Virus record (IMG/VR): IMGVR_UViG_2667527592_000002
Direction: 5' to 3' (one strand)
Length of the DNA: 64,000 nucleotides
From: a virus
Lineage: Duplodnaviria; Heunggongvirae; Uroviricota; Caudoviricetes
Part shown: one piece after another, positions 10,035 to 52,096 of the stretch
How positions within the stretch are numbered: position 1 is the stretch's first letter
Layout: each line of letters begins with the position of its first letter
Position numbers and translations under genes: made by a program
The notes under the pieces: model-generated
The model's input: only the letters and a program-made list of their open reading frames with translations
What the model was told of the DNA's origin: nothing
Databases searched by the model: none

Positions 10035-10086
10035 CCTGTGTGTCTACAAAACATCCCAATGATCGGAAAATGCTCGCTCGATAATT

Positions 10087-10098
10087 TGTGTTAGAAAA
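10087..10098 (+). promoter_or_regulatory. TGTTAGAAAA-type recurrent motif
   Basis: tgtgttagaaaa; second partial copy tgtttctaaat about 10 nt downstream. Confidence 0.4.
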
Positions 10099-10447
10099 TT
10101 AATTTGCTGTTTCTAAATCGGAATGTATGATCTGCATCATCGACTGAAGTCATCCATTGCTGAAATTTTTAGTTGATCTTCCATGTTTTCAGGCTTATAT
10201 TCATGCCGTCGTAGCAAATTCTGCGACCGGGTTTGACAGCCTGAATACTTACGCGGACAACCGCACATTTCCGATATTGCGGTATTTTTGTGTCCGTAAA
10301 ACCACGTTACGCCCGAATTATGGTGGGGCGTGATGGGGAGGCTTCGGCCTGCTGGTTTCGTAAGTGCCAGTCTGTCAACCCTGTCACGTCCTGCCACCTG
10401 TTTGACAGCGGGTCGCAGGTTGTTTATCAACTTACGAGGCCGTAACT

Positions 10448-10672
10448 ATGGTTAATGCCAATCCTTGCTCACGTCCAGAATTCATCTGGCGTTTCCACTC
10501 CCTGCAAAAACACTGCGATCACTTCGCAATTGCCGCAACCGAAAAAGAAGCCCGTTCTCTGATCCCTGATCAGTATGGTGTTCTTACTGGTCGTTTCTCT
10601 ACTTCCCCACAACCAAACACTAATCCCTGGTATCGCAATATTACCAATCCCGGAATTGCGGAGGCACACTGA
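10448..10672 (+). CDS. Icd-like small protein (cell-division inhibitor family; copy 1)
   Basis: 74 aa, ...EFIWRFHSLQKH...AIAATEKEAR...; paralogue at 50569..50784; precedes Ant-like gene with ATGA overlap. Confidence 0.45.
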   Translation: MVNANPCSRPEFIWRFHSLQKHCDHFAIAATEKEARSLIPDQYGVLTGRFSTSPQPNTNPWYRNITNPGIAEAH

Positions 10673-11379
10673 TGGAAATCTGCATTCTTGAAAAGCCATC
10701 AATGACCAGCATTGAGATCGCGGAGCTGGTGGGAAGTCGCCCGGATAACGTTAAACGCACTATTGAACGCTTGAGTAAATCAGGTGTTATTCCACTTCCT
10801 CCAATGGAGGTTTCCGAAAATATCAATAACTTAGGATTTAAAGTTAAAAATTCACACTACGTCTTCGAAGGCGAGCAAGGCAAGCGTGACAGTATCATTG
10901 TCGTTGCGCAGCTTTCTCCCGAATTCACCGCCCGGCTGGTGGACCGCTGGCGCGAACTGGAAGAACAAGTACGCCAGCCGTTGACCGAAATAGAGATGAT
11001 CGCCGCAATGGCTGCAAATGCAGTTCAGCAGCAAAAGCGGCTTCATGTTGTTGAGTCAAAGGTTAGCCAGGTGGTAGAAACCGTCGAGCAAATCAAGAAG
11101 GGCAACATGCCGGAAGGTTACATTGGCTACCGCCAGCTGGCGGCGAAATGCGGCCTGACCGAAGCCAAATGCCGCAACCTTGTCAACGCTTACCGGATTC
11201 CCACCGATACGCATGAGTTTTTAACTCCAGAGGGGGTATTGTCGCGTCGTTCCATCGTCGCCTTATCTCCCTTCATGAATGCTTTTAACCGGATGATGTC
11301 GGAGGCTGAACACCGAGGAAAACGTTGGTATCACCCAAAAATGGGGCAATTCCAGGTGATCGGTTGGGGAGGTGAGTGA
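10672..11379 (+). CDS. Rha/Ant-family antirepressor (copy 1)
   Basis: N-terminal MTSIEIAELVGSRPDNVKRTIERL (phage Rha-type motif); paralogue of 50784..51725. Confidence 0.7.
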   Translation: MEICILEKPSMTSIEIAELVGSRPDNVKRTIERLSKSGVIPLPPMEVSENINNLGFKVKNSHYVFEGEQGKRDSIIVVAQLSPEFTARLVDRWRELEEQVRQPLTEIEMIAAMAANAVQQQKRLHVVESKVSQVVETVEQIKKGNMPEGYIGYRQLAAKCGLTEAKCRNLVNAYRIPTDTHEFLTPEGVLSRRSIVALSPFMNAFNRMMSEAEHRGKRWYHPKMGQFQVIGWGGE

Positions 11380-11576
11380 TGGACATCATGCAGGCGGTAA
11401 AAAAAATCAGGGAAGGACAGGCTGAAGTGTGCCGCCGTAAAGCATGGAGTGTTGGTGTATGGGCCTGGCCTGATAATTACTCTACTACCGGATGGTTTTG
11501 TATTAATGGACTCCAGATCCGGGAAGTTGATTTATCGACGGCTGATATAGTCGGTAATGATTGGATGGTGACTTGA
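11376..11576 (+). CDS. small DUF2829 (Tad2-type)-like protein
   Basis: 66 aa, ...KKIREGQAEVCRRKAW...DLSTADIVGNDWMVT; matches C-terminal extension of Ant copy 2. Confidence 0.4.
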   Translation: MMDIMQAVKKIREGQAEVCRRKAWSVGVWAWPDNYSTTGWFCINGLQIREVDLSTADIVGNDWMVT

Positions 11577-23513: not shown

Positions 23514-23589
23514 GATGGTGTAGCTCAGCGGTTAGAGCGGTTGACTGTTAATCAACGGGTCGATGGTTCAAATCCATCCACCATCGCCA
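23514..23589 (+). tRNA. tRNA-Asn (anticodon GTT)
   Basis: 76 nt cloverleaf folded by hand; acceptor GATGGTG/CACCATC, T-loop TTCAAAT, anticodon loop CTGTTAA, encoded CCA. Confidence 0.9.
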
Positions 23590-23591
23590 AT

Positions 23592-23667
23592 GCCGGTTTA
23601 GCTCAGTTGGTAGAGCGCCTGCCTTGTAAGCAGGATGTCAGCGGTTCGAGTCCGTTAACCGGCACCA
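23592..23667 (+). tRNA. tRNA-Thr (anticodon TGT)
   Basis: 76 nt; acceptor GCCGGTT/AACCGGC, D-arm GCTCAGTTGGTAGAGC, anticodon loop CTTGTAA, CCA. Confidence 0.9.
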
Positions 23668-23677
23668 GCACAACAGG

Positions 23678-23757
23678 TAAGGGTATTTTGCGACGTCGGA
23701 GATCGCCGAGCTTGGCAGAGGGTTCGAATCCCTACGAAGTACCCTTACCGTTGTGAT
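23678..23757 (+). ncRNA. tRNA-like degenerate hairpin module (unit A)
   Basis: GGTAAGGGTA...GGTTCGAATCCC...TACCCTTACC: acceptor-like stem and T-loop-like element but no canonical cloverleaf and no CCA. Confidence 0.3.
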
Positions 23758-23889
23758 GAATGCGCAGGCTGATGCGCGAAAGACATTGCAGCTATTGCGG
23801 AAAAGAGCTGTCCGGCGGGGCAATTAAACGCCCGTGAGAGTCTGAAATAACCGCAAGCCGGAGATCAGCACCGGTCATCACAACACAAC

Positions 23890-23950
23890 AGGTAAGGGCA
23901 TTCTCCCTTATGGGGCTTGGCTTAAATGCATCGAGTGCTCTTACCGTTGT
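23890..23950 (+). ncRNA. hairpin module (unit B) sharing leader and trailer with unit A
   Basis: GGTAAGGGC...GCTCTTACC stem of about 9 bp; flanked by ggagatcagcacc leader and cgttgtgatgaa trailer. Confidence 0.25.
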
Positions 23951-24337
23951 GATGAAGTGCAGCTCTTTGAAGCAACCAGAAGATAAGCATCTGGCTTCAC
24001 AACATAAACCGCAGGAACGACCAATAAACGGTAGTCCGTATGGAGAACACCCCGTTGAGGAAGAGGCCTGGCCGGAACCGTAACCGGCACTACAACGTTG
24101 AGAACACTGGCGTAACGGGGTCATATCCCAATCTACGAATAAATGTTGCGTTGCAGCGTGACAACCAGTGTTCTCAACATTGTGGTGAATGCGTGTTGCT
24201 GGCGCGCAAGTCCGCCCTATGGCAACGAGGCGGCGTAGTAAATATCGATGCCTCAGTCATCAAGCGCACTGACCGGCCTTATGGGCTATGAAAAAAAGAG
24301 GCGCAGTCGGAGATCAGCACCGACCACCACAATCAAT

Positions 24338-24424
24338 GGAGAGTAGGGAGCATGGTGCTCAAGCGGTCTTGAAAACCGTCCCATTGCGCAAGCGATGATG
24401 GTTCGATTCCATTACTCTCCGCCA
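24338..24424 (+). tRNA. tRNA-Ser-like (anticodon TGA), long variable arm, atypical D-arm
   Basis: acceptor GGAGAGT/ACTCTCC, anticodon arm GCGGTCTTGAAAACCGT, T-loop TTCGATT, CCA; D-arm non-canonical. Confidence 0.6.
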
Positions 24425-24584
24425 TCGCAACGTTAAGAGTATTTGGCTAATTAAGCGAATGCCGGAAGCAGAACCGGATCACCAAATGCGTACAGGCGTC
24501 ATCGCCGCCCAGCCAGCCAAGTGCTCTTACCATTGCGGTGAATGCGGCTAAGCGCACGCGGAACAGTTAAAACAATCCTCCTTA

Positions 24585-24908
24585 GTGGTTAAGTCAAACA
24601 TCCCGGCGTTAATTGTTAACTGGTTAACGTCACCTGGAGGCACCAGGCACCGCAATCTAATAAAGTTTCAAGCAATGGGGTTTTTGTTGTCAGACTTCAG
24701 ATATAGATGGTTGTGGAAGGAGAGCCTGTACATAGTGCAGTTATTTCTTCCGCTATTTGTCTGCTTTGTCATGCTTCCTGAGCTGAAATACGCAATTTCA
24801 GACACTTTAAGCACTATCGTTACTTTTGTGTTTTATCTTTACTTTGATTACTTATTGAGCACTAAAATCAATGAATTATCCGAGGAAATGCAAGGTGGCT
24901 GTAAGTGA
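24585..24908 (+). CDS. small hydrophobic protein (start uncertain)
   Basis: ORF between tRNAs with two predicted TM helices. Confidence 0.25.
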   Translation: MVKSNIPALIVNWLTSPGGTRHRNLIKFQAMGFLLSDFRYRWLWKESLYIVQLFLPLFVCFVMLPELKYAISDTLSTIVTFVFYLYFDYLLSTKINELSEEMQGGCK

Positions 24909-24909
24909 T

Positions 24910-25038
24910 GGATTTTTGGGCGTTTGCCGATAAGAACCCTGGTTGGACATTTTTATTTTTGCTGGTGGTTGCATATGGGGTCGAGCAAGCGGCTAAAGCC
25001 TTACGCGGTTCTGGCAAAAAGCGTAAGCGGAATTAACA
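24910..25038 (+). CDS. small membrane protein (42 aa; below ORF-track cutoff)
   Basis: MDFWAFADKNPGWTFLFLLVVAYGVEQAAKALRGSGKKRKRN; one TM helix, basic tail. Confidence 0.25.
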
Positions 25039-25045
25039 GTAATCT

Positions 25046-25121
25046 GGCCCTTTAGCTCAGTGGTTAGAGCAGGCGACTCATAATCGCACGGTCACCGGTT
25101 CAAATCCGGTAGGGGCCACCA
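25046..25121 (+). tRNA. tRNA-Ile2-like (anticodon CAT, lysidine type) or tRNA-Met
   Basis: 76 nt; near-identical arms to E. coli ileX as recalled: GGCCCTTTAGCTCAGTGGTTAGAGCAGGCGACTCATAATCGC... Confidence 0.9.
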
Positions 25122-48933: not shown

Positions 48934-49098
48934 AACATAAGCACTGCGAAAAGCTCAATACCAAGCTCAAGTAGCGCCAACGCCCCGAAAAACAACACAT
49001 AGAACAGGCCAATCTCATTCACAGATGGCTGGTGGATCGCACTTAAAGCTATAAGCATCATGTCCTCCAAACAGTTATCAGGAATGATATTAATGTTT

Positions 49099-49110
49099 TG
49101 TGTTAGAAAA
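49099..49110 (+). promoter_or_regulatory. TGTTAGAAAA-type recurrent motif
   Basis: tgtgttagaaaa, about 70 nt upstream of 49179 start. Confidence 0.4.
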
Positions 49111-49178
49111 TCAATTTTGAATATCTAACTATTTTGATCAATCATAGAAAAATCGCTGAAAAGTAAGAGGCAGCCATC

Positions 49179-49757
49179 ATGCAGAAACAGAGCTATTGGG
49201 AGAAACAGAGACAAAAAGCCATGCAAAAATTGGCTGACCCGGCCTGGCGAGAGGAACAAAGGGCAAAGCGCCTTCAACAAGCTCAACGCCAGCAGCAGCG
49301 AGCGAGAGAAAAAGCCGCATCGCCTGAATATCGGCAAAAAAAAATTGAAAAAGCAAAGCAATATGACCAGCGGAGAAAAGAGAAAGCTGTATCCGCTCCG
49401 TCCAAAAAAACACGCACGTCACGCGGCCTGAAGGGCAGATCACTCACAGCCGATGAGCGCCGGATACAGACCGCTATCGGTACTCTCCCCTGCATTGCCT
49501 GCCATATTCACGGGCAACATAGCCCAGTAGTATCCCTGCACCATATCTTCGGGAGAACGGCAGAGAACGCGCATAAATATGTCCTCCCTTTGTGTAAATG
49601 GCACCACCAGTACGCAGCGCCAGCCGAGGTCCGAGAACAATATCCCTGGCTGGTCCCTGTTCATGCTGATGGAAAAATAGGCGGAAAAGCAGATTTCATA
49701 CGGCACAATGCCGATGAAATGGCGTTGTATCAGATGGCAATTGAATTGATAAATTAG
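49179..49757 (+). CDS. ref: HNH endonuclease with highly charged N-terminal region (Ref-like)
   Basis: N-terminal about 80 aa K/R/Q/E-rich; C-terminal ...LPCIACHIHG...HHIFGR...LPLCKWHH... HNH-type Cys/His pattern. Confidence 0.55.
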   Translation: MQKQSYWEKQRQKAMQKLADPAWREEQRAKRLQQAQRQQQRAREKAASPEYRQKKIEKAKQYDQRRKEKAVSAPSKKTRTSRGLKGRSLTADERRIQTAIGTLPCIACHIHGQHSPVVSLHHIFGRTAENAHKYVLPLCKWHHQYAAPAEVREQYPWLVPVHADGKIGGKADFIRHNADEMALYQMAIELIN

Positions 49758-49768
49758 TTTTCTAACAT
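49758..49768 (-). promoter_or_regulatory. TGTTAGAAAA-type recurrent motif
   Basis: ttttctaacat. Confidence 0.4.
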
Positions 49769-50087
49769 TTTAAGTTGAATTGAAAATTTCTCCGATGTAC
49801 ATTCACTACCGATTGGCACACCGGTCAACTTTTTGAGACAAACTATTTAGTTTTTCGTATTATTGCCGCCGCCATACCTATGGCGGTGCAATATAGGTGG
49901 CTGAAAAGCCCCCGTTGACTCACGGTGTTCCAGCCTTTATTGCGCCGCCACCAGACCGTGGAACAGTCGATGGCGGCTCCGAAAGCAAGGAGTCACTACA
50001 CTATGAACAACTACAGTCTTTTCCCATCACTCGTCGTCCACCACTCACGCGATAATCTGCATTCTTTACTCGCGCTGGGGGTGTCAA

Positions 50088-50255
50088 AATGACTGTTCGC
50101 TACCTCAACTTTCAAATCAAGAACATTACTGGCGGTTGCTATGACTGGTTTGTCACTCTCGGAAAAGAAGTGATCACCGGGAAGCTGGATGAAGTGAAAG
50201 CTAAAGCAATGGCCTACGCCTGCAAGCAAGCCCGGAAAAAATCCGCCAAAGCATA
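50088..50255 (+). CDS. small hypothetical protein (55 aa; below ORF-track cutoff)
   Basis: hand translation MTVRYLNFQIKNITGGCYDWFVTLGKEVITGKLDEVKAKAMAYACKQARKKSAKA; RBS present. Confidence 0.3.
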
Positions 50256-50353
50256 AAATACTGACTGTTGCGCCCTGGCATTATCGTGGGGTATATTTCT
50301 ACGGCACCTTAGAAAAACGGGTGCCGGGATTGGAACCCCGGATAATGCAAAAG

Positions 50354-50376
50354 GCGACACAGACGCCGAAAGCGTC
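50354..50376 (+). terminator. rho-independent terminator
   Basis: gacgccgaaagcgtc + ttttttt. Confidence 0.6.
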
Positions 50377-50568
50377 TTTTTTTGTGTCATGCCATCGCAC
50401 AGCCATACGTAGCGTTTAGCTCAGAGATCAATGGTAGTGCTGGCTGGGCTGCCGAAAGGCAGGCCGGTTCCCTTTTGCGCCGGTAGTTCCAACCCAGTCA
50501 GTGCTACCGCCATTGAGATTGGAACCTCACGCGGTAGCTCCTTAAATTAGCAAAAGGAGGCTGCCAAT

Positions 50569-50784
50569 ATGGCTACTATCCCTACCCCAACTCATTCTGA
50601 ATTTATCTGGCGTTTCTATTCCTGCCAAAAACACCTGTATATCTGCGTAATGGCTGCTACCGAAGCAGAAGCTCGTTCATACCTTCCTGAAGAACCCTGC
50701 ATTTTTGCCGCACGCTTCACTCTTGATGCGATGGAGATCCTCAATTACTGGAATCTGCCGATGAACTGCGTGGAGGTGCACTGA
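50569..50784 (+). CDS. Icd-like small protein (copy 2)
   Basis: ...EFIWRFYSCQKH...VMAATEAEAR...; paralogue of 10448..10672. Confidence 0.45.
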   Translation: MATIPTPTHSEFIWRFYSCQKHLYICVMAATEAEARSYLPEEPCIFAARFTLDAMEILNYWNLPMNCVEVH

Positions 50785-51725
50785 TGAATCTGCCCATCTC
50801 TCGCAAAGCGACAATGACCAGTATTGAGATCGCGAAACTGGTGGGAAGTCGTCACTCTGATGTTAAACGCAGCATCGAAAGACTTGTTGCTAAAGGTGTT
50901 ATCCAACATACGCCATTGGCTACAGTTGAGAATAATCAATCACTTAGCCCTAATAAATACACAAAAGCCTATGTCTTCGAAGGCGAACAAGGCAAACGAG
51001 ACAGTATCATTGTCGTCGCACAGCTCTCTCCGGAATTCACCGCCCGGCTGGTGGACCGCTGGCGCGAACTGGAGAATGCCAGGGGACCGTTAAAATCAAA
51101 AGCCGAAATCCTGGCTGAAATGGCGCAAATGCATCTTGAGCATGAACGCCGGATCAACGCCGTAAATGCCCAGGTAGCCGAGGTATCAGCACAAGTATCG
51201 ATGGTTGCTGAAACACTCGAGCAAATAAAGAAAGGCAATATTCCGGAAGGCTACATTGGCTACCGCCAGCTGGCGGCGAAATGCGGCCTGACTGAAGCCA
51301 AATGCCGAAACCTGGTCAACGCTTACCGGATTCCCACCGATACGCATGAGTTTTTAACTCCAGATGGTTTGCTTGCGCGACGCTCCATTGTGGCCCTGGC
51401 CCCCTTCCGGAAAGCCTTTAAGCAGGTGATGTCGGAGGCAGAACCACGCAATAAACGCTGGTATCATCCAAAGATGGGGATGTTTCAGGCAATCCACCAT
51501 CCTGTGCCTGAAAGCCCAAAGGATAATCTGTCACTACATACCGCCAGAGAGAAGATCAGGACTGGATACGCAACAGTGTGTCGTCGTTCTTCCTGGCCTG
51601 AAGGTGTATGGGTATGGCCCGAAGGTGGATCACGAAAGCACTGGCGCACCATCCGGGACGGAAAAATCCATGCTATTGATTTAGCTCCAAAGGATGTTAT
51701 TGCTATGGACTGGATTGTTAGTTAA
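50784..51725 (+). CDS. Rha/Ant-family antirepressor (copy 2) with DUF2829-like C-terminal extension
   Basis: MTSIEIAKLVGSRHSDVKRSIERL; C-terminal ...KIRTGYATVCRRSSWPEGVWVWP...IHAIDLAPKDVIAMDWIVS aligns with standalone 11376..11576. Confidence 0.7.
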   Translation: MNLPISRKATMTSIEIAKLVGSRHSDVKRSIERLVAKGVIQHTPLATVENNQSLSPNKYTKAYVFEGEQGKRDSIIVVAQLSPEFTARLVDRWRELENARGPLKSKAEILAEMAQMHLEHERRINAVNAQVAEVSAQVSMVAETLEQIKKGNIPEGYIGYRQLAAKCGLTEAKCRNLVNAYRIPTDTHEFLTPDGLLARRSIVALAPFRKAFKQVMSEAEPRNKRWYHPKMGMFQAIHHPVPESPKDNLSLHTAREKIRTGYATVCRRSSWPEGVWVWPEGGSRKHWRTIRDGKIHAIDLAPKDVIAMDWIVS

Positions 51726-51784
51726 ATGCTGCATCCCCGGCGACTCCGGGGATTTAACTGCCAAATAATCGGATTATCCGCACG

Positions 51785-52096
51785 ATGAAAAAAATAGATT
51801 TCACTTATTCTGCCGCCACAATCCAGCGACGTTTCAGTCTCATAAGGGAAGTGGAACTATCAAAAAACTTGTATCAAATTCTACTGGATGAAGAGTTTTC
51901 ACTGATGGTTATAGCAGAAAAATTAGCTATGCCGAACGACCGGCACAAGGTCATAGCCAGCCTCGATCTGGTGACAAACAGATACTGGGAGAAAGAGGAA
52001 CTACATGAGGCGGGAGTAATTCGTGACCTGATGGAGAATTCCGTTCCCCGCCGCTATCGTGCAGGGAACGGCATCTCCGTGGTTAAAGGTGTTTAA
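51785..52096 (+). CDS. hypothetical protein
   Basis: 103 aa ORF. Confidence 0.3.
   Translation: MKKIDFTYSAATIQRRFSLIREVELSKNLYQILLDEEFSLMVIAEKLAMPNDRHKVIASLDLVTNRYWEKEELHEAGVIRDLMENSVPRRYRAGNGISVVKGV

Follow-up and report, generated by a model that had tools for sequence, protein, structure and literature searches.

Known since 1990, C4 RNAs constitute an Rfam family with members in many phages and proteobacteria. In phage P1, C4 is processed by RNase P and pairs with the sites a2 and b2, thereby blocking the icd ribosome-binding site (summarised in PMC5320573 and PMC8198154); for RNase P processing of the P1 and P7 RNAs the source is Hartmann et al. 1995, cited here second-hand from PMC5320573. 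The annotated P1 immI region, utilised here as the experimental reference, comprises Oc4, P2c4, P1c4, a1, b1, the 77-nt C4, a2, b2, icd and ant1/2, the role of a1/b1 being annotated as 'putative' only. Within P1 C4 the antisense word a' (CUGUCAA) occupies positions 51-57 and b' (UCACUAAC) positions 37-44. In Gifsy-1, IsrK is a terminated short RNA that accumulates and is bound by Hfq. It acts in trans: binding to its own read-through mRNA, with residues G28/G31 of IsrK pairing with C162/C159, activates translation of that mRNA; SeqA of satellite phage P4 is regarded by the same authors as a structural homolog of IsrK (PMC4825925). A tandem of isrK and C4 has been noted in APSE phages, and some Stx2 phage records already carry it as an annotation. 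For the D6-like plasmid pYU39_89, a c4/icd/antirepressor region and a second antisense-RNA/icd region were reported in 2019 (PMC6799933).

The DNA analysed here, referred to as the window, is a stretch of 64,000 nucleotides from a member of the Caudoviricetes. A first-pass annotation had flagged two spans of it, 10200-10447 and 50285-50568, as candidate C4-like antisense RNAs upstream of icd-like genes. These spans and the genes that follow them are termed module 1 and module 2, and their relatives type I and type II modules.

Relatives and gene context

On nucleotide comparison both flagged regions matched Escherichia phage D6 (MF356679), a P1-like plasmid prophage, with 98.9% identity across module 1 and 93-96% across module 2, and by sequence the window is a close relative of that prophage. 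Stretches similar to the module-2 region (49000-52000) are carried by 467 plasmids, mostly from Escherichia. Each of the two spans covers almost exactly the stretch from the -10 hexamer of a promoter to the start codon (ATG) of an icd-like ORF (10448 in module 1 and 50569 in module 2). Both are 5' leaders running from a promoter-like site to that ORF and, in keeping with the ORF-poor character previously noted, contain only short, non-conserved ORFs. The GenBank records of D6 have icd-like and antirepressor genes in both modules, no RNA genes there and hence neither of the C4 RNAs. The protein-coding genes of the two modules are as follows.

10448-10672, plus strand: module 1 icd-like ORF, 74 aa (NCBIfam phage_ICD_like, E = 3e-10)
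10672-11379, plus strand: module 1 Rha-type antirepressor, 235 aa (phrog_63 'anti-repressor Ant', E = 2e-47)
50569-50784, plus strand: module 2 icd-like ORF, 71 aa (NCBIfam phage_ICD_like, E = 3e-13)
50784-51725, plus strand: module 2 Rha-type antirepressor, 313 aa (phrog_63 'anti-repressor Ant', E = 2e-59)

In both modules the icd stop codon and the antirepressor start codon share the sequence TGATG, which would provide the arrangement needed for translational coupling. The two antirepressors are 66% identical to one another and a weak Rha domain was detected in both. Comparison of P1 Ant1 with the module-2 antirepressor by BLASTP revealed no clear similarity, the best match having an E value of 0.01 over 67 residues. 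Since similarity to P1 Ant1/2 is not detectable, action of these antirepressors on a D6-type C1 repressor is an assumption.

The order of parts in each module is promoter, a1, b1, terminator, C4 (b' then a'), a2, b2 over the Shine-Dalgarno sequence, icd and a coupled antirepressor gene, as in the P1 layout. Taken together, we are confident, if short of certain, that each region is the untranslated leader of a P1-type immI operon, the two operons being paralogues within one D6-like plasmid prophage.

A type I and a type II module were found together on one contig in 18 public viral contigs, one Escherichia genome contig, D6 and the window, in varied allele combinations. Genomes usually hold one module of each type.

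C4 antisense RNAs

The whole window was scanned with Rfam at gathering thresholds, the gathering score of the C4 model (RF01695) being 45 bits. The scan returned exactly two C4 matches, one per flagged span and both full-length to the model, in addition to a c4-a1b1 match in module 1 and an isrK match in module 2. A C4-like antisense RNA upstream of each icd-like gene, as proposed in the first-pass annotation, is thus borne out by family membership. The coordinates of the mature RNAs were assigned by homology with mature P1 C4.

10316-10401, plus strand: module 1 C4, Rfam match (RF01695, 69.6 bits)
10322-10398, plus strand: module 1 mature C4, 77 nt
10358-10365, plus strand: module 1 b' loop, TCGTAAGT
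10372-10378, plus strand: module 1 a', CTGTCAA
50427-50514, plus strand: module 2 C4, Rfam match (RF01695, 76.7 bits)
50433-50511, plus strand: module 2 mature C4, 79 nt
50471-50478, plus strand: module 2 b' loop, CCTTTTGC
50486-50492, plus strand: module 2 a', GTTCCAA

The module-1 leader is ~91% identical to the P1 immI leader, with which it aligns position by position between the P1c4 promoter and icd, and the C4 RNAs of the two differ in the b' loop only. Module-1 C4 begins with GGU and ends in the 3' tail ACC, as in P1. Module-2 C4 also begins with GGU; after its stem come GCC and then an A, giving a tRNA-like GCCA. The RNase P product of P1 likewise starts with GGU, and the conserved 5' end together with the ACC/GCCA tail makes release of both C4 RNAs by RNase P plausible.

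Minimum free energy (MFE) folds were calculated as -42.8 kcal/mol (z = -5.2) for module-1 C4 and -46.6 kcal/mol (z = -5.3) for module-2 C4. Both folds match the shape of P1 C4, with a long closing stem enclosing two hairpins, b' in the loop of the second hairpin and a' single-stranded ahead of the 3' strand. Folds of the leaders only were without significant structure (z = -1.6 and -0.8). Among 13 distinct C4 sequences, compensatory double changes were observed at 13 of the 24 predicted base pairs, and the stems of module-2 C4 exhibit compensatory changes relative to other lineages. An alignment of three C4 sequences with MAFFT mis-registered the second hairpin of module 2, and for this reason the Rfam matches and a model-free search for word triplets were used instead of a covariance model of our own.

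Target words and pairing

The positions of a' and b' in P1 C4 were mapped onto the window and exact complements were then searched for, from which the layouts of the two modules were obtained. The targets identified in the icd leaders are listed below.

10402-10408, plus strand: module 1 a2, TTGACAG, exact Watson-Crick complement of a'
10430-10437, plus strand: module 1 b2, ACTTACGA, exact complement of b', overlapping the Shine-Dalgarno sequence GAGG (10436-10439)
50519-50525, plus strand: module 2 a2, TTGGAAC, exact complement of a'
50550-50557, plus strand: module 2 b2, GCAAAAGG, exact complement of b', overlapping the Shine-Dalgarno sequence AAGGAGG (50554-50560)

Complementarity between the candidate RNA and the downstream icd leader, which had been named as a check on the C4 assignment, was accordingly found in both modules, as exact matches of 7 nt (a') and 8 nt (b'). 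The positions of a2 and b2 in module 1 agree with the annotated P1 sites. The recognition words are TTGACAG and ACTTACGA in module 1 and TTGGAAC and GCAAAAGG in module 2; in D6 the a word of module 2 reads TTGAGAC instead of TTGGAAC at a1, a' and a2 alike. All four complementary words together did not arise in any of 20,000 dinucleotide-preserving shuffles of the flanks of either module.

No complementarity of the a' and b' words of one module with the targets of the other was found by the exact-complement search. Predicted duplexes between accessible segments ranged from -28 to -37 kcal/mol for cognate partners and from -15 to -20 kcal/mol for non-cognate partners; these values were used in place of whole-molecule RNAduplex energies, which were set aside because the closing stem of C4 is free to open in them, making them uninformative. 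As the a and b words of the two modules are unrelated, each C4 should control only its own operon.

Upstream a1/b1 elements

Each module possesses a further element that ends ~30-50 nt before C4. It carries a1 and b1, which are sense copies of the target words and exactly complementary to a' and b' of C4.

10208-10289, plus strand: module 1 a1/b1 leader element, IsrK-like (hairpin 1, hairpin 2, b1, weak terminator)
10233-10239, plus strand: module 1 a1, TTGACAG, presented by hairpin 2
10247-10253, plus strand: module 1 b1, ACTTACG, single-stranded
10260-10265/10278-10283, plus strand: module 1 terminator hairpin, ACCGCA/TGCGGT, followed by A and T5 (10284-10289)
50304-50383, plus strand: module 2 IsrK-like a1/b1 RNA (hairpin 1, hairpin 2, b1, strong intrinsic terminator)
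50330-50336, plus strand: module 2 a1, TTGGAAC, presented by hairpin 2
50347-50354, plus strand: module 2 b1, GCAAAAGG
50361-50377, plus strand: module 2 terminator, AGACGC-CGAAA-GCGTCT, with a T7 run to 50383; called by the terminator scan

The gathering scores of the two Rfam families concerned are 46.7 bits for c4-a1b1 (RF03163) and 50 bits for isrK (RF01394). Module 1 matched c4-a1b1 above gathering (55.9 bits at 10195-10247) and, at a permissive threshold, isrK just under gathering (46.5 bits at 10208-10289). Module 2 matched isrK above gathering with the terminator included (62.5 bits at 50304-50382), its c4-a1b1 match of 22.4 bits at 50291-50344 being sub-threshold, so that it is not a member of that family by score. 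These reciprocal sub-threshold matches indicate that Rfam isrK and c4-a1b1 describe the same kind of element.

The module-1 terminator hairpin and its T run are identical in P1. With its 12-nt loop the hairpin is too weak to have been called by the simple terminator scan, and a discrete short a1/b1 RNA may for this reason not form in module 1. The hairpin and T7 run previously noted in module 2 are real, although the coordinates first given for them were a few bases off those listed above. In the MFE fold of the full module-1 leader a1 and b1 pair with C4 in cis, disrupting the C4 fold, and the active RNA species in this module would depend on folding kinetics and processing. For module 2 the predicted a1/b1:C4 duplex amounts to -37.2 kcal/mol versus -28.2 kcal/mol for C4:leader.

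Promoters and an operator-like motif

10173-10201, plus strand: module 1 promoter, TTGATC, 17-nt spacer, TATATT
50268-50297, plus strand: module 2 promoter candidate, TTGCGC (50268-50273), 18-nt spacer, TATATT (50292-50297)
10086-10103, plus strand: operator-like motif TGTGTTAGAAAATTAATT, left arm of an inverted repeat at 10091-10116

The module-1 promoter was identified by a promoter scan and by alignment with annotated P1 immI, where its positional equivalent is P1c4 (formerly P51b). The module-2 candidate scores under the threshold of the simple scan and was identified by conservation; across seven type II loci its -35 hexamer never varies and its -10 hexamer is retained as TATATT/TATGCT. 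Transcription of module 2 would start near G50304, the position at which the match to the Rfam isrK model begins.

The operator-like motif follows the pattern (A/G)TGTTAGAAAA(C/T)TAA at 10086-10103, and the inverted repeat to which it belongs is unique in the window and lies ~70 nt upstream of the module-1 promoter. The motif core GTTAGAAA is present in 13 copies in the window, compared with ~2 expected, and its flanks are conserved; a search of the window with this 13-copy motif found none overlapping the module-2 promoter. The P1 C1 operator consensus (ATTGCTCTAATAAATTT type) yielded no sites in the whole window at up to three mismatches, so P1-type C1 control cannot be asserted. The motif at 10086-10103 is a candidate D6-type C1 operator, and its presumed function would include the binding of a repressor.

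Covariation among related loci

Loci containing icd were collected from IMG/VR and GTDB genomes. A model-free search was then made for leader words that have an upstream reverse complement and are repeated further upstream, and in almost all icd loci it recovered one and the same pair of triplets, at constant offsets. The 149 callable related loci represent 13 allele combinations and all four pairings are kept in each of these. Pairing is 7/7 for both a1:a' and a2:a' and 8/8 for b2:b', and b1:b' pairs at 7/8 positions in every type I locus and at 8/8 in type II; the only other departure among the 149 loci is a single lineage with single G-U wobbles. The words a1, a' and a2 always co-vary, as do b1, b' and b2, and this three-way covariation is retained across the six type II allele combinations. 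Such a pattern argues strongly, on comparative grounds, that selection acts on all three copies of each word to preserve their pairing. A profile search of genome contigs with an Icd alignment yielded only six loci and added little diversity.

The alleles of P1 (TTGACAG, GTTAGTGA) and P7 (TTAGCAG, GATTGTGA) are two of the 13 combinations. These phages are the classical heteroimmune pair and their alleles are known to determine heteroimmunity. Module 1 combines the a word of P1 with a b word that neither P1 nor P7 has.

Despite the interleaving of their six sites (a1-b1-b'-a'-a2-b2), the a and b words reassort freely in nature.

Proposed mechanism

In the mechanism proposed here, a sigma-70 promoter would start transcription a few bases before the a1/b1 (IsrK-like) element. 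Some transcripts would end at the intrinsic terminator of that element; those reading through would contain the ~78-nt C4, which, by analogy with P1, would be cut out by RNase P just before its GGU 5' end. The b' loop and the single-stranded a' of C4 would then pair with b2 and a2 in the leader of the same operon, to which their complementarity is established, and since b2 lies over the Shine-Dalgarno sequence this pairing would be expected to block translation of icd. The antirepressor gene overlaps the icd stop codon at TGATG and would for that reason be silenced together with icd, through the loss of translational coupling and through transcriptional polarity as in P1. The antirepressor would consequently be off in a lysogen, and incoming phages of the same specificity would be repressed too. 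The least certain step concerns the short terminated a1/b1 RNA, which may compete with the mRNA target for pairing with C4, either inside the precursor (in cis) or in trans, or both, and could thereby adjust or lift repression. Experimental evidence for such a role exists for IsrK in Gifsy-1. The competitor reading fits the unbroken covariation of a1 and b1, the stronger a1/b1:C4 duplex of module 2 and the cis pairing in the MFE fold of module 1. Beyond sequence family, fold, complementarity, covariation and gene order, the scheme is drawn by homology with the described systems.

A fuller version can be put forward tentatively, and we would give it a little less than an even chance. Each module would be a three-RNA switch served by one promoter, in which the a1/b1 RNA is a decoy that titrates C4 and the extent of read-through sets repression; isrK would be equivalent to c4-a1b1 and STnc1160 to C4, and the two modules would be orthogonal switches governing two paralogous antirepressors. 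If this were true, the free reassortment of words would imply repeated selection for new immunity specificities.

Alternative explanations

The modules may instead be mainly activator switches of the IsrK type, with the a1/b1 RNA as the principal regulator and C4 serving only as its intramolecular inhibitory partner. The above-gathering isrK match in module 2 is in keeping with such an arrangement, as is the precedent of IsrK, which activates its own read-through mRNA in trans through pairing of G28/G31 with C162/C159, where a' of C4 would lie. The predicted energies for module 2 (a1/b1:C4 stronger than C4:leader) and the cis pairing of a1/b1 with C4 in the module-1 MFE fold point the same way. 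However, module 1 is near-identical to P1, in which C4 is a trans-acting immunity repressor, and here, unlike in Gifsy-1, C4 and the antirepressor gene are separated by an icd ORF whose Shine-Dalgarno sequence is overlapped by b2. As the main account of the modules we consider the activator switch rather unlikely; the activator-switch and C4-repressor views are not mutually exclusive.

There is little to recommend the view that one module, most plausibly module 2, is a decaying duplicate without a regulatory role. P1 and P7 manage on one module, neither was among the phage records that matched the type II (module-2) leader, and the module-2 promoter is without an operator-like motif. Yet module 2 is intact in its promoter, a1, b1, terminator, C4 fold, a2, b2, icd and antirepressor gene, three-way covariation is maintained in type II over six allele combinations, the pairing of type I with type II recurs on the contigs enumerated above, and regions like that of module 2 are present in the 467 plasmids.

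It is very improbable that the regions code for small proteins and not for RNAs, whether a 'c4 ORF' read from an AUG at the 5' end of C4 or orf84, a hypothetical minus-strand gene laid over the RNAs and leader of module 2 in the D6 annotation. ORFs are present at 10290/10319-10445 and 50431-50550, c4 was formerly annotated as a CDS in P1 record X15639, and translation of Gifsy-1 orf45, the equivalent of the old 'c4 ORF', contributes to anrP expression. The ORF through C4 nevertheless varies from 14 to >46 codons according to the b' allele, with a stop after 14 codons in P1, and a reading frame whose length follows b' is not a conserved protein. Substitutions in C4 track RNA pairing and not codon structure, and in P1/P7 the repressor C4 is an RNA (Citron and Schuster 1990, cited through PMC5320573 and PMC8198154). 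The equivalent of orf84 in the window is split into fragments of 58 and 35 codons, and orf84 is probably spurious.

The elements cited in the first-pass annotation (~10262-10296 and 50354-50383) are indeed stable hairpins with T runs within the flagged spans, but there is scarcely any likelihood that they are the C4 RNAs themselves: the Rfam C4 model and homology with P1 put C4 downstream of them (10322-10398 and 50433-50511), they match the terminator of the isrK and c4-a1b1 models, and the elements to which they belong, upstream of C4, carry the sense words a1 and b1, not antisense words. Equally hard to credit is a tRNA-like or tRNA-derived element for RNase P recognition, or a tRNA remnant, at TAGCTCAG (50417-50424); this segment fits the D-arm consensus of the window's own tRNAs and the 5' end of C4 is 9 nt downstream of it, but ARAGORN and the Rfam tRNA model found no tRNA near 50417, D6 (TAGCTCCA) and lineage L086 have a changed octamer, and lineages L092 and L134 have the whole spacer deleted and C4 kept, which marks it as a chance resemblance in a non-conserved spacer.

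Comparison with known systems

Module 1 shares with P1 the a word TTGACAG and differs from both P1 and P7 in the b word (GTTAGTGA and GATTGTGA, respectively, versus ACTTACGA). Module 2 differs from P1 and P7 in both words and at most stem positions. The window has two modules per genome compared with one in P1 and P7, and module 1 is located downstream of repL, whereas its P1 counterpart lies upstream of kilA-repL. Its antirepressors are of the Rha/phrog_63 type without clear similarity to P1 Ant1/2, and the C1 operator of P1 is absent from the window.

E. coli and Salmonella frequently harbour P1-like plasmid prophages, some of which carry resistance genes. C4 specificity decides mutual exclusion or tolerance among these prophages. 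A table of the natural a/b specificity alleles, combined with the usual pairing of type I with type II, would help to predict heteroimmunity groups. The reference records of D6 are without both the C4 RNAs and the a1/b1 elements, and the coordinates given here can be used to correct them.

The upstream element of module 2 has the same two hairpins and terminator as that of the Gifsy-1 isrK-orf45-anrP locus, and in both a region of stable structured RNA is followed by an antirepressor gene. They differ in that a 71-aa icd, with b2 on its Shine-Dalgarno sequence, lies here between C4 and the antirepressor gene, and in that an ORF across C4 resembling orf45 of Gifsy-1 is not conserved here. In the Rfam isrK consensus, the a1 box contains residues G28/G31, through which IsrK pairs with its mRNA. 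From that consensus and the published positions, STnc1160/orf45 of Gifsy-1 appears to be equivalent to C4, a name that the IsrK paper itself does not use. If confirmed, the link between IsrK and the a1/b1 boxes would join two separate literatures. The CI RNA of satellite phage P4, with seqA and seqC, follows by description the same logic, a small RNA processed from the leader of its own operon and having complements upstream and downstream; CI acts by premature termination of transcription, in contrast to the occlusion of a ribosome-binding site proposed for C4.

Both elements are an already known kind of regulator that is missing from the D6 reference annotation. Three points are not stated in the literature searched, namely that the two modules should be orthogonal, that isrK is equivalent to c4-a1b1, and that a and b words reassort despite their interleaving; each is a modest extension of the systems described for P1, Gifsy-1 and P4 and not a new kind of system.

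Reassortment of the specificity words

The a and b words of the immI-type leaders (a1 and b1 upstream of the C4 antisense RNA, a' and b' within it, a2 and b2 as targets in the icd leader) were found to reassort when the two modules of the window were compared with the icd leaders of related loci (L004-L169). Eight of the ten possible type I combinations were seen, together with six combinations of type II words, and this reassortment was found despite the interleaved order of the six sites, a1-b1-b'-a'-a2-b2. An exchange of b with a retained would require approximately three crossovers or, alternatively, stepwise compensatory mutation.

Leader folding and Rfam families

The predicted minimum free energy (MFE) structure of the full module 1 leader (10208-10462) has a1 paired in cis with a' and b1 with b', leaving the closing stem of C4 open; in that predicted for the module 2 leader the C4 fold is retained. 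In module 2 (50503-50538), the 3' side of the stem that closes C4, GCTACCGC, is also able to pair with GCGGTAGC in the leader, an interaction that would yield a hairpin with a2 exposed in the loop. The helix, 8 bp long, is kept across type II loci, and a shorter counterpart, CCTGC/GCAGG, is present in module 1 (10390-10419).

Both isrK (RF01394) and c4-a1b1 (RF03163) matched a single element per module in Rfam, at 10195-10289 and 50291-50383, each family passing the gathering score in one of the modules and falling short of it in the second. Rfam places c4-a1b1 in clan CL00128 and isrK in no clan. Both families appear to be models of the same RNA element. Elsewhere in the window, four tRNA genes (Asn-GTT, Thr-TGT, Ser-TGA and Met-CAT) are clustered on the plus strand at 23514-25121; three of the four were reported by Rfam at gathering level, the Ser tRNA by ARAGORN only.

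Candidate operator sites

The core GTTAGAAA occurs 13 times in the window against approximately two copies expected, at the following positions.

10090, 14494, 19991, 21034, 22283, 22439, 44498 and 49102, plus strand, core GTTAGAAA
8897, 31005, 32415, 49766 and 60765, minus strand, core GTTAGAAA

The full motif, likewise in 13 copies, is asymmetric and approximately 17 bp long, (A/G)TGTTAGAAA(A/T)(C/T)TAA. One copy is contained in an inverted repeat upstream of module 1 (10091-10116) and two flank the ref gene; none of the 13 lies at the module 2 promoter. The P1 C1 operator consensus is absent from the window, and the motif is a candidate for a D6-type C1 operator in its place.

Coding sequences of the modules

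Residues 252-312 of the module 2 antirepressor (50784-51725), some 60 C-terminal residues, correspond to phrog_7385. A separate 66-aa ORF following the module 1 antirepressor (11376-11576) matches this same C-terminus; between the two paralogous modules, a gene has been either fused or split.

In D6, orf84 (minus strand, 1215-1514 of locus L002) is annotated over the IsrK-like and C4 region. It is not intact in the window (50214-50406, minus strand), where only fragments of 58 and 35 codons are left, and is probably a mis-annotation. The AUG at the 5' end of C4 is conserved, and the putative RNase P site lies within it (AU|GG). The ORFs opened by this AUG, 10319-10445 in module 1 and 50431-50550 in module 2, stop 2 nt and 18 nt, respectively, before the icd ATG; in related loci the length of this ORF varies, with 14 codons at the short end and over 46 at the long end.

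Comparison with known systems

The predicted leader folds of the window modules resemble structures A and B, the two alternatives that have been described for the transcript of isrK. The ORF beginning at the C4 AUG has positional counterparts in Gifsy-1 orf45 and in the old 'c4 CDS' of P1 record X15639.
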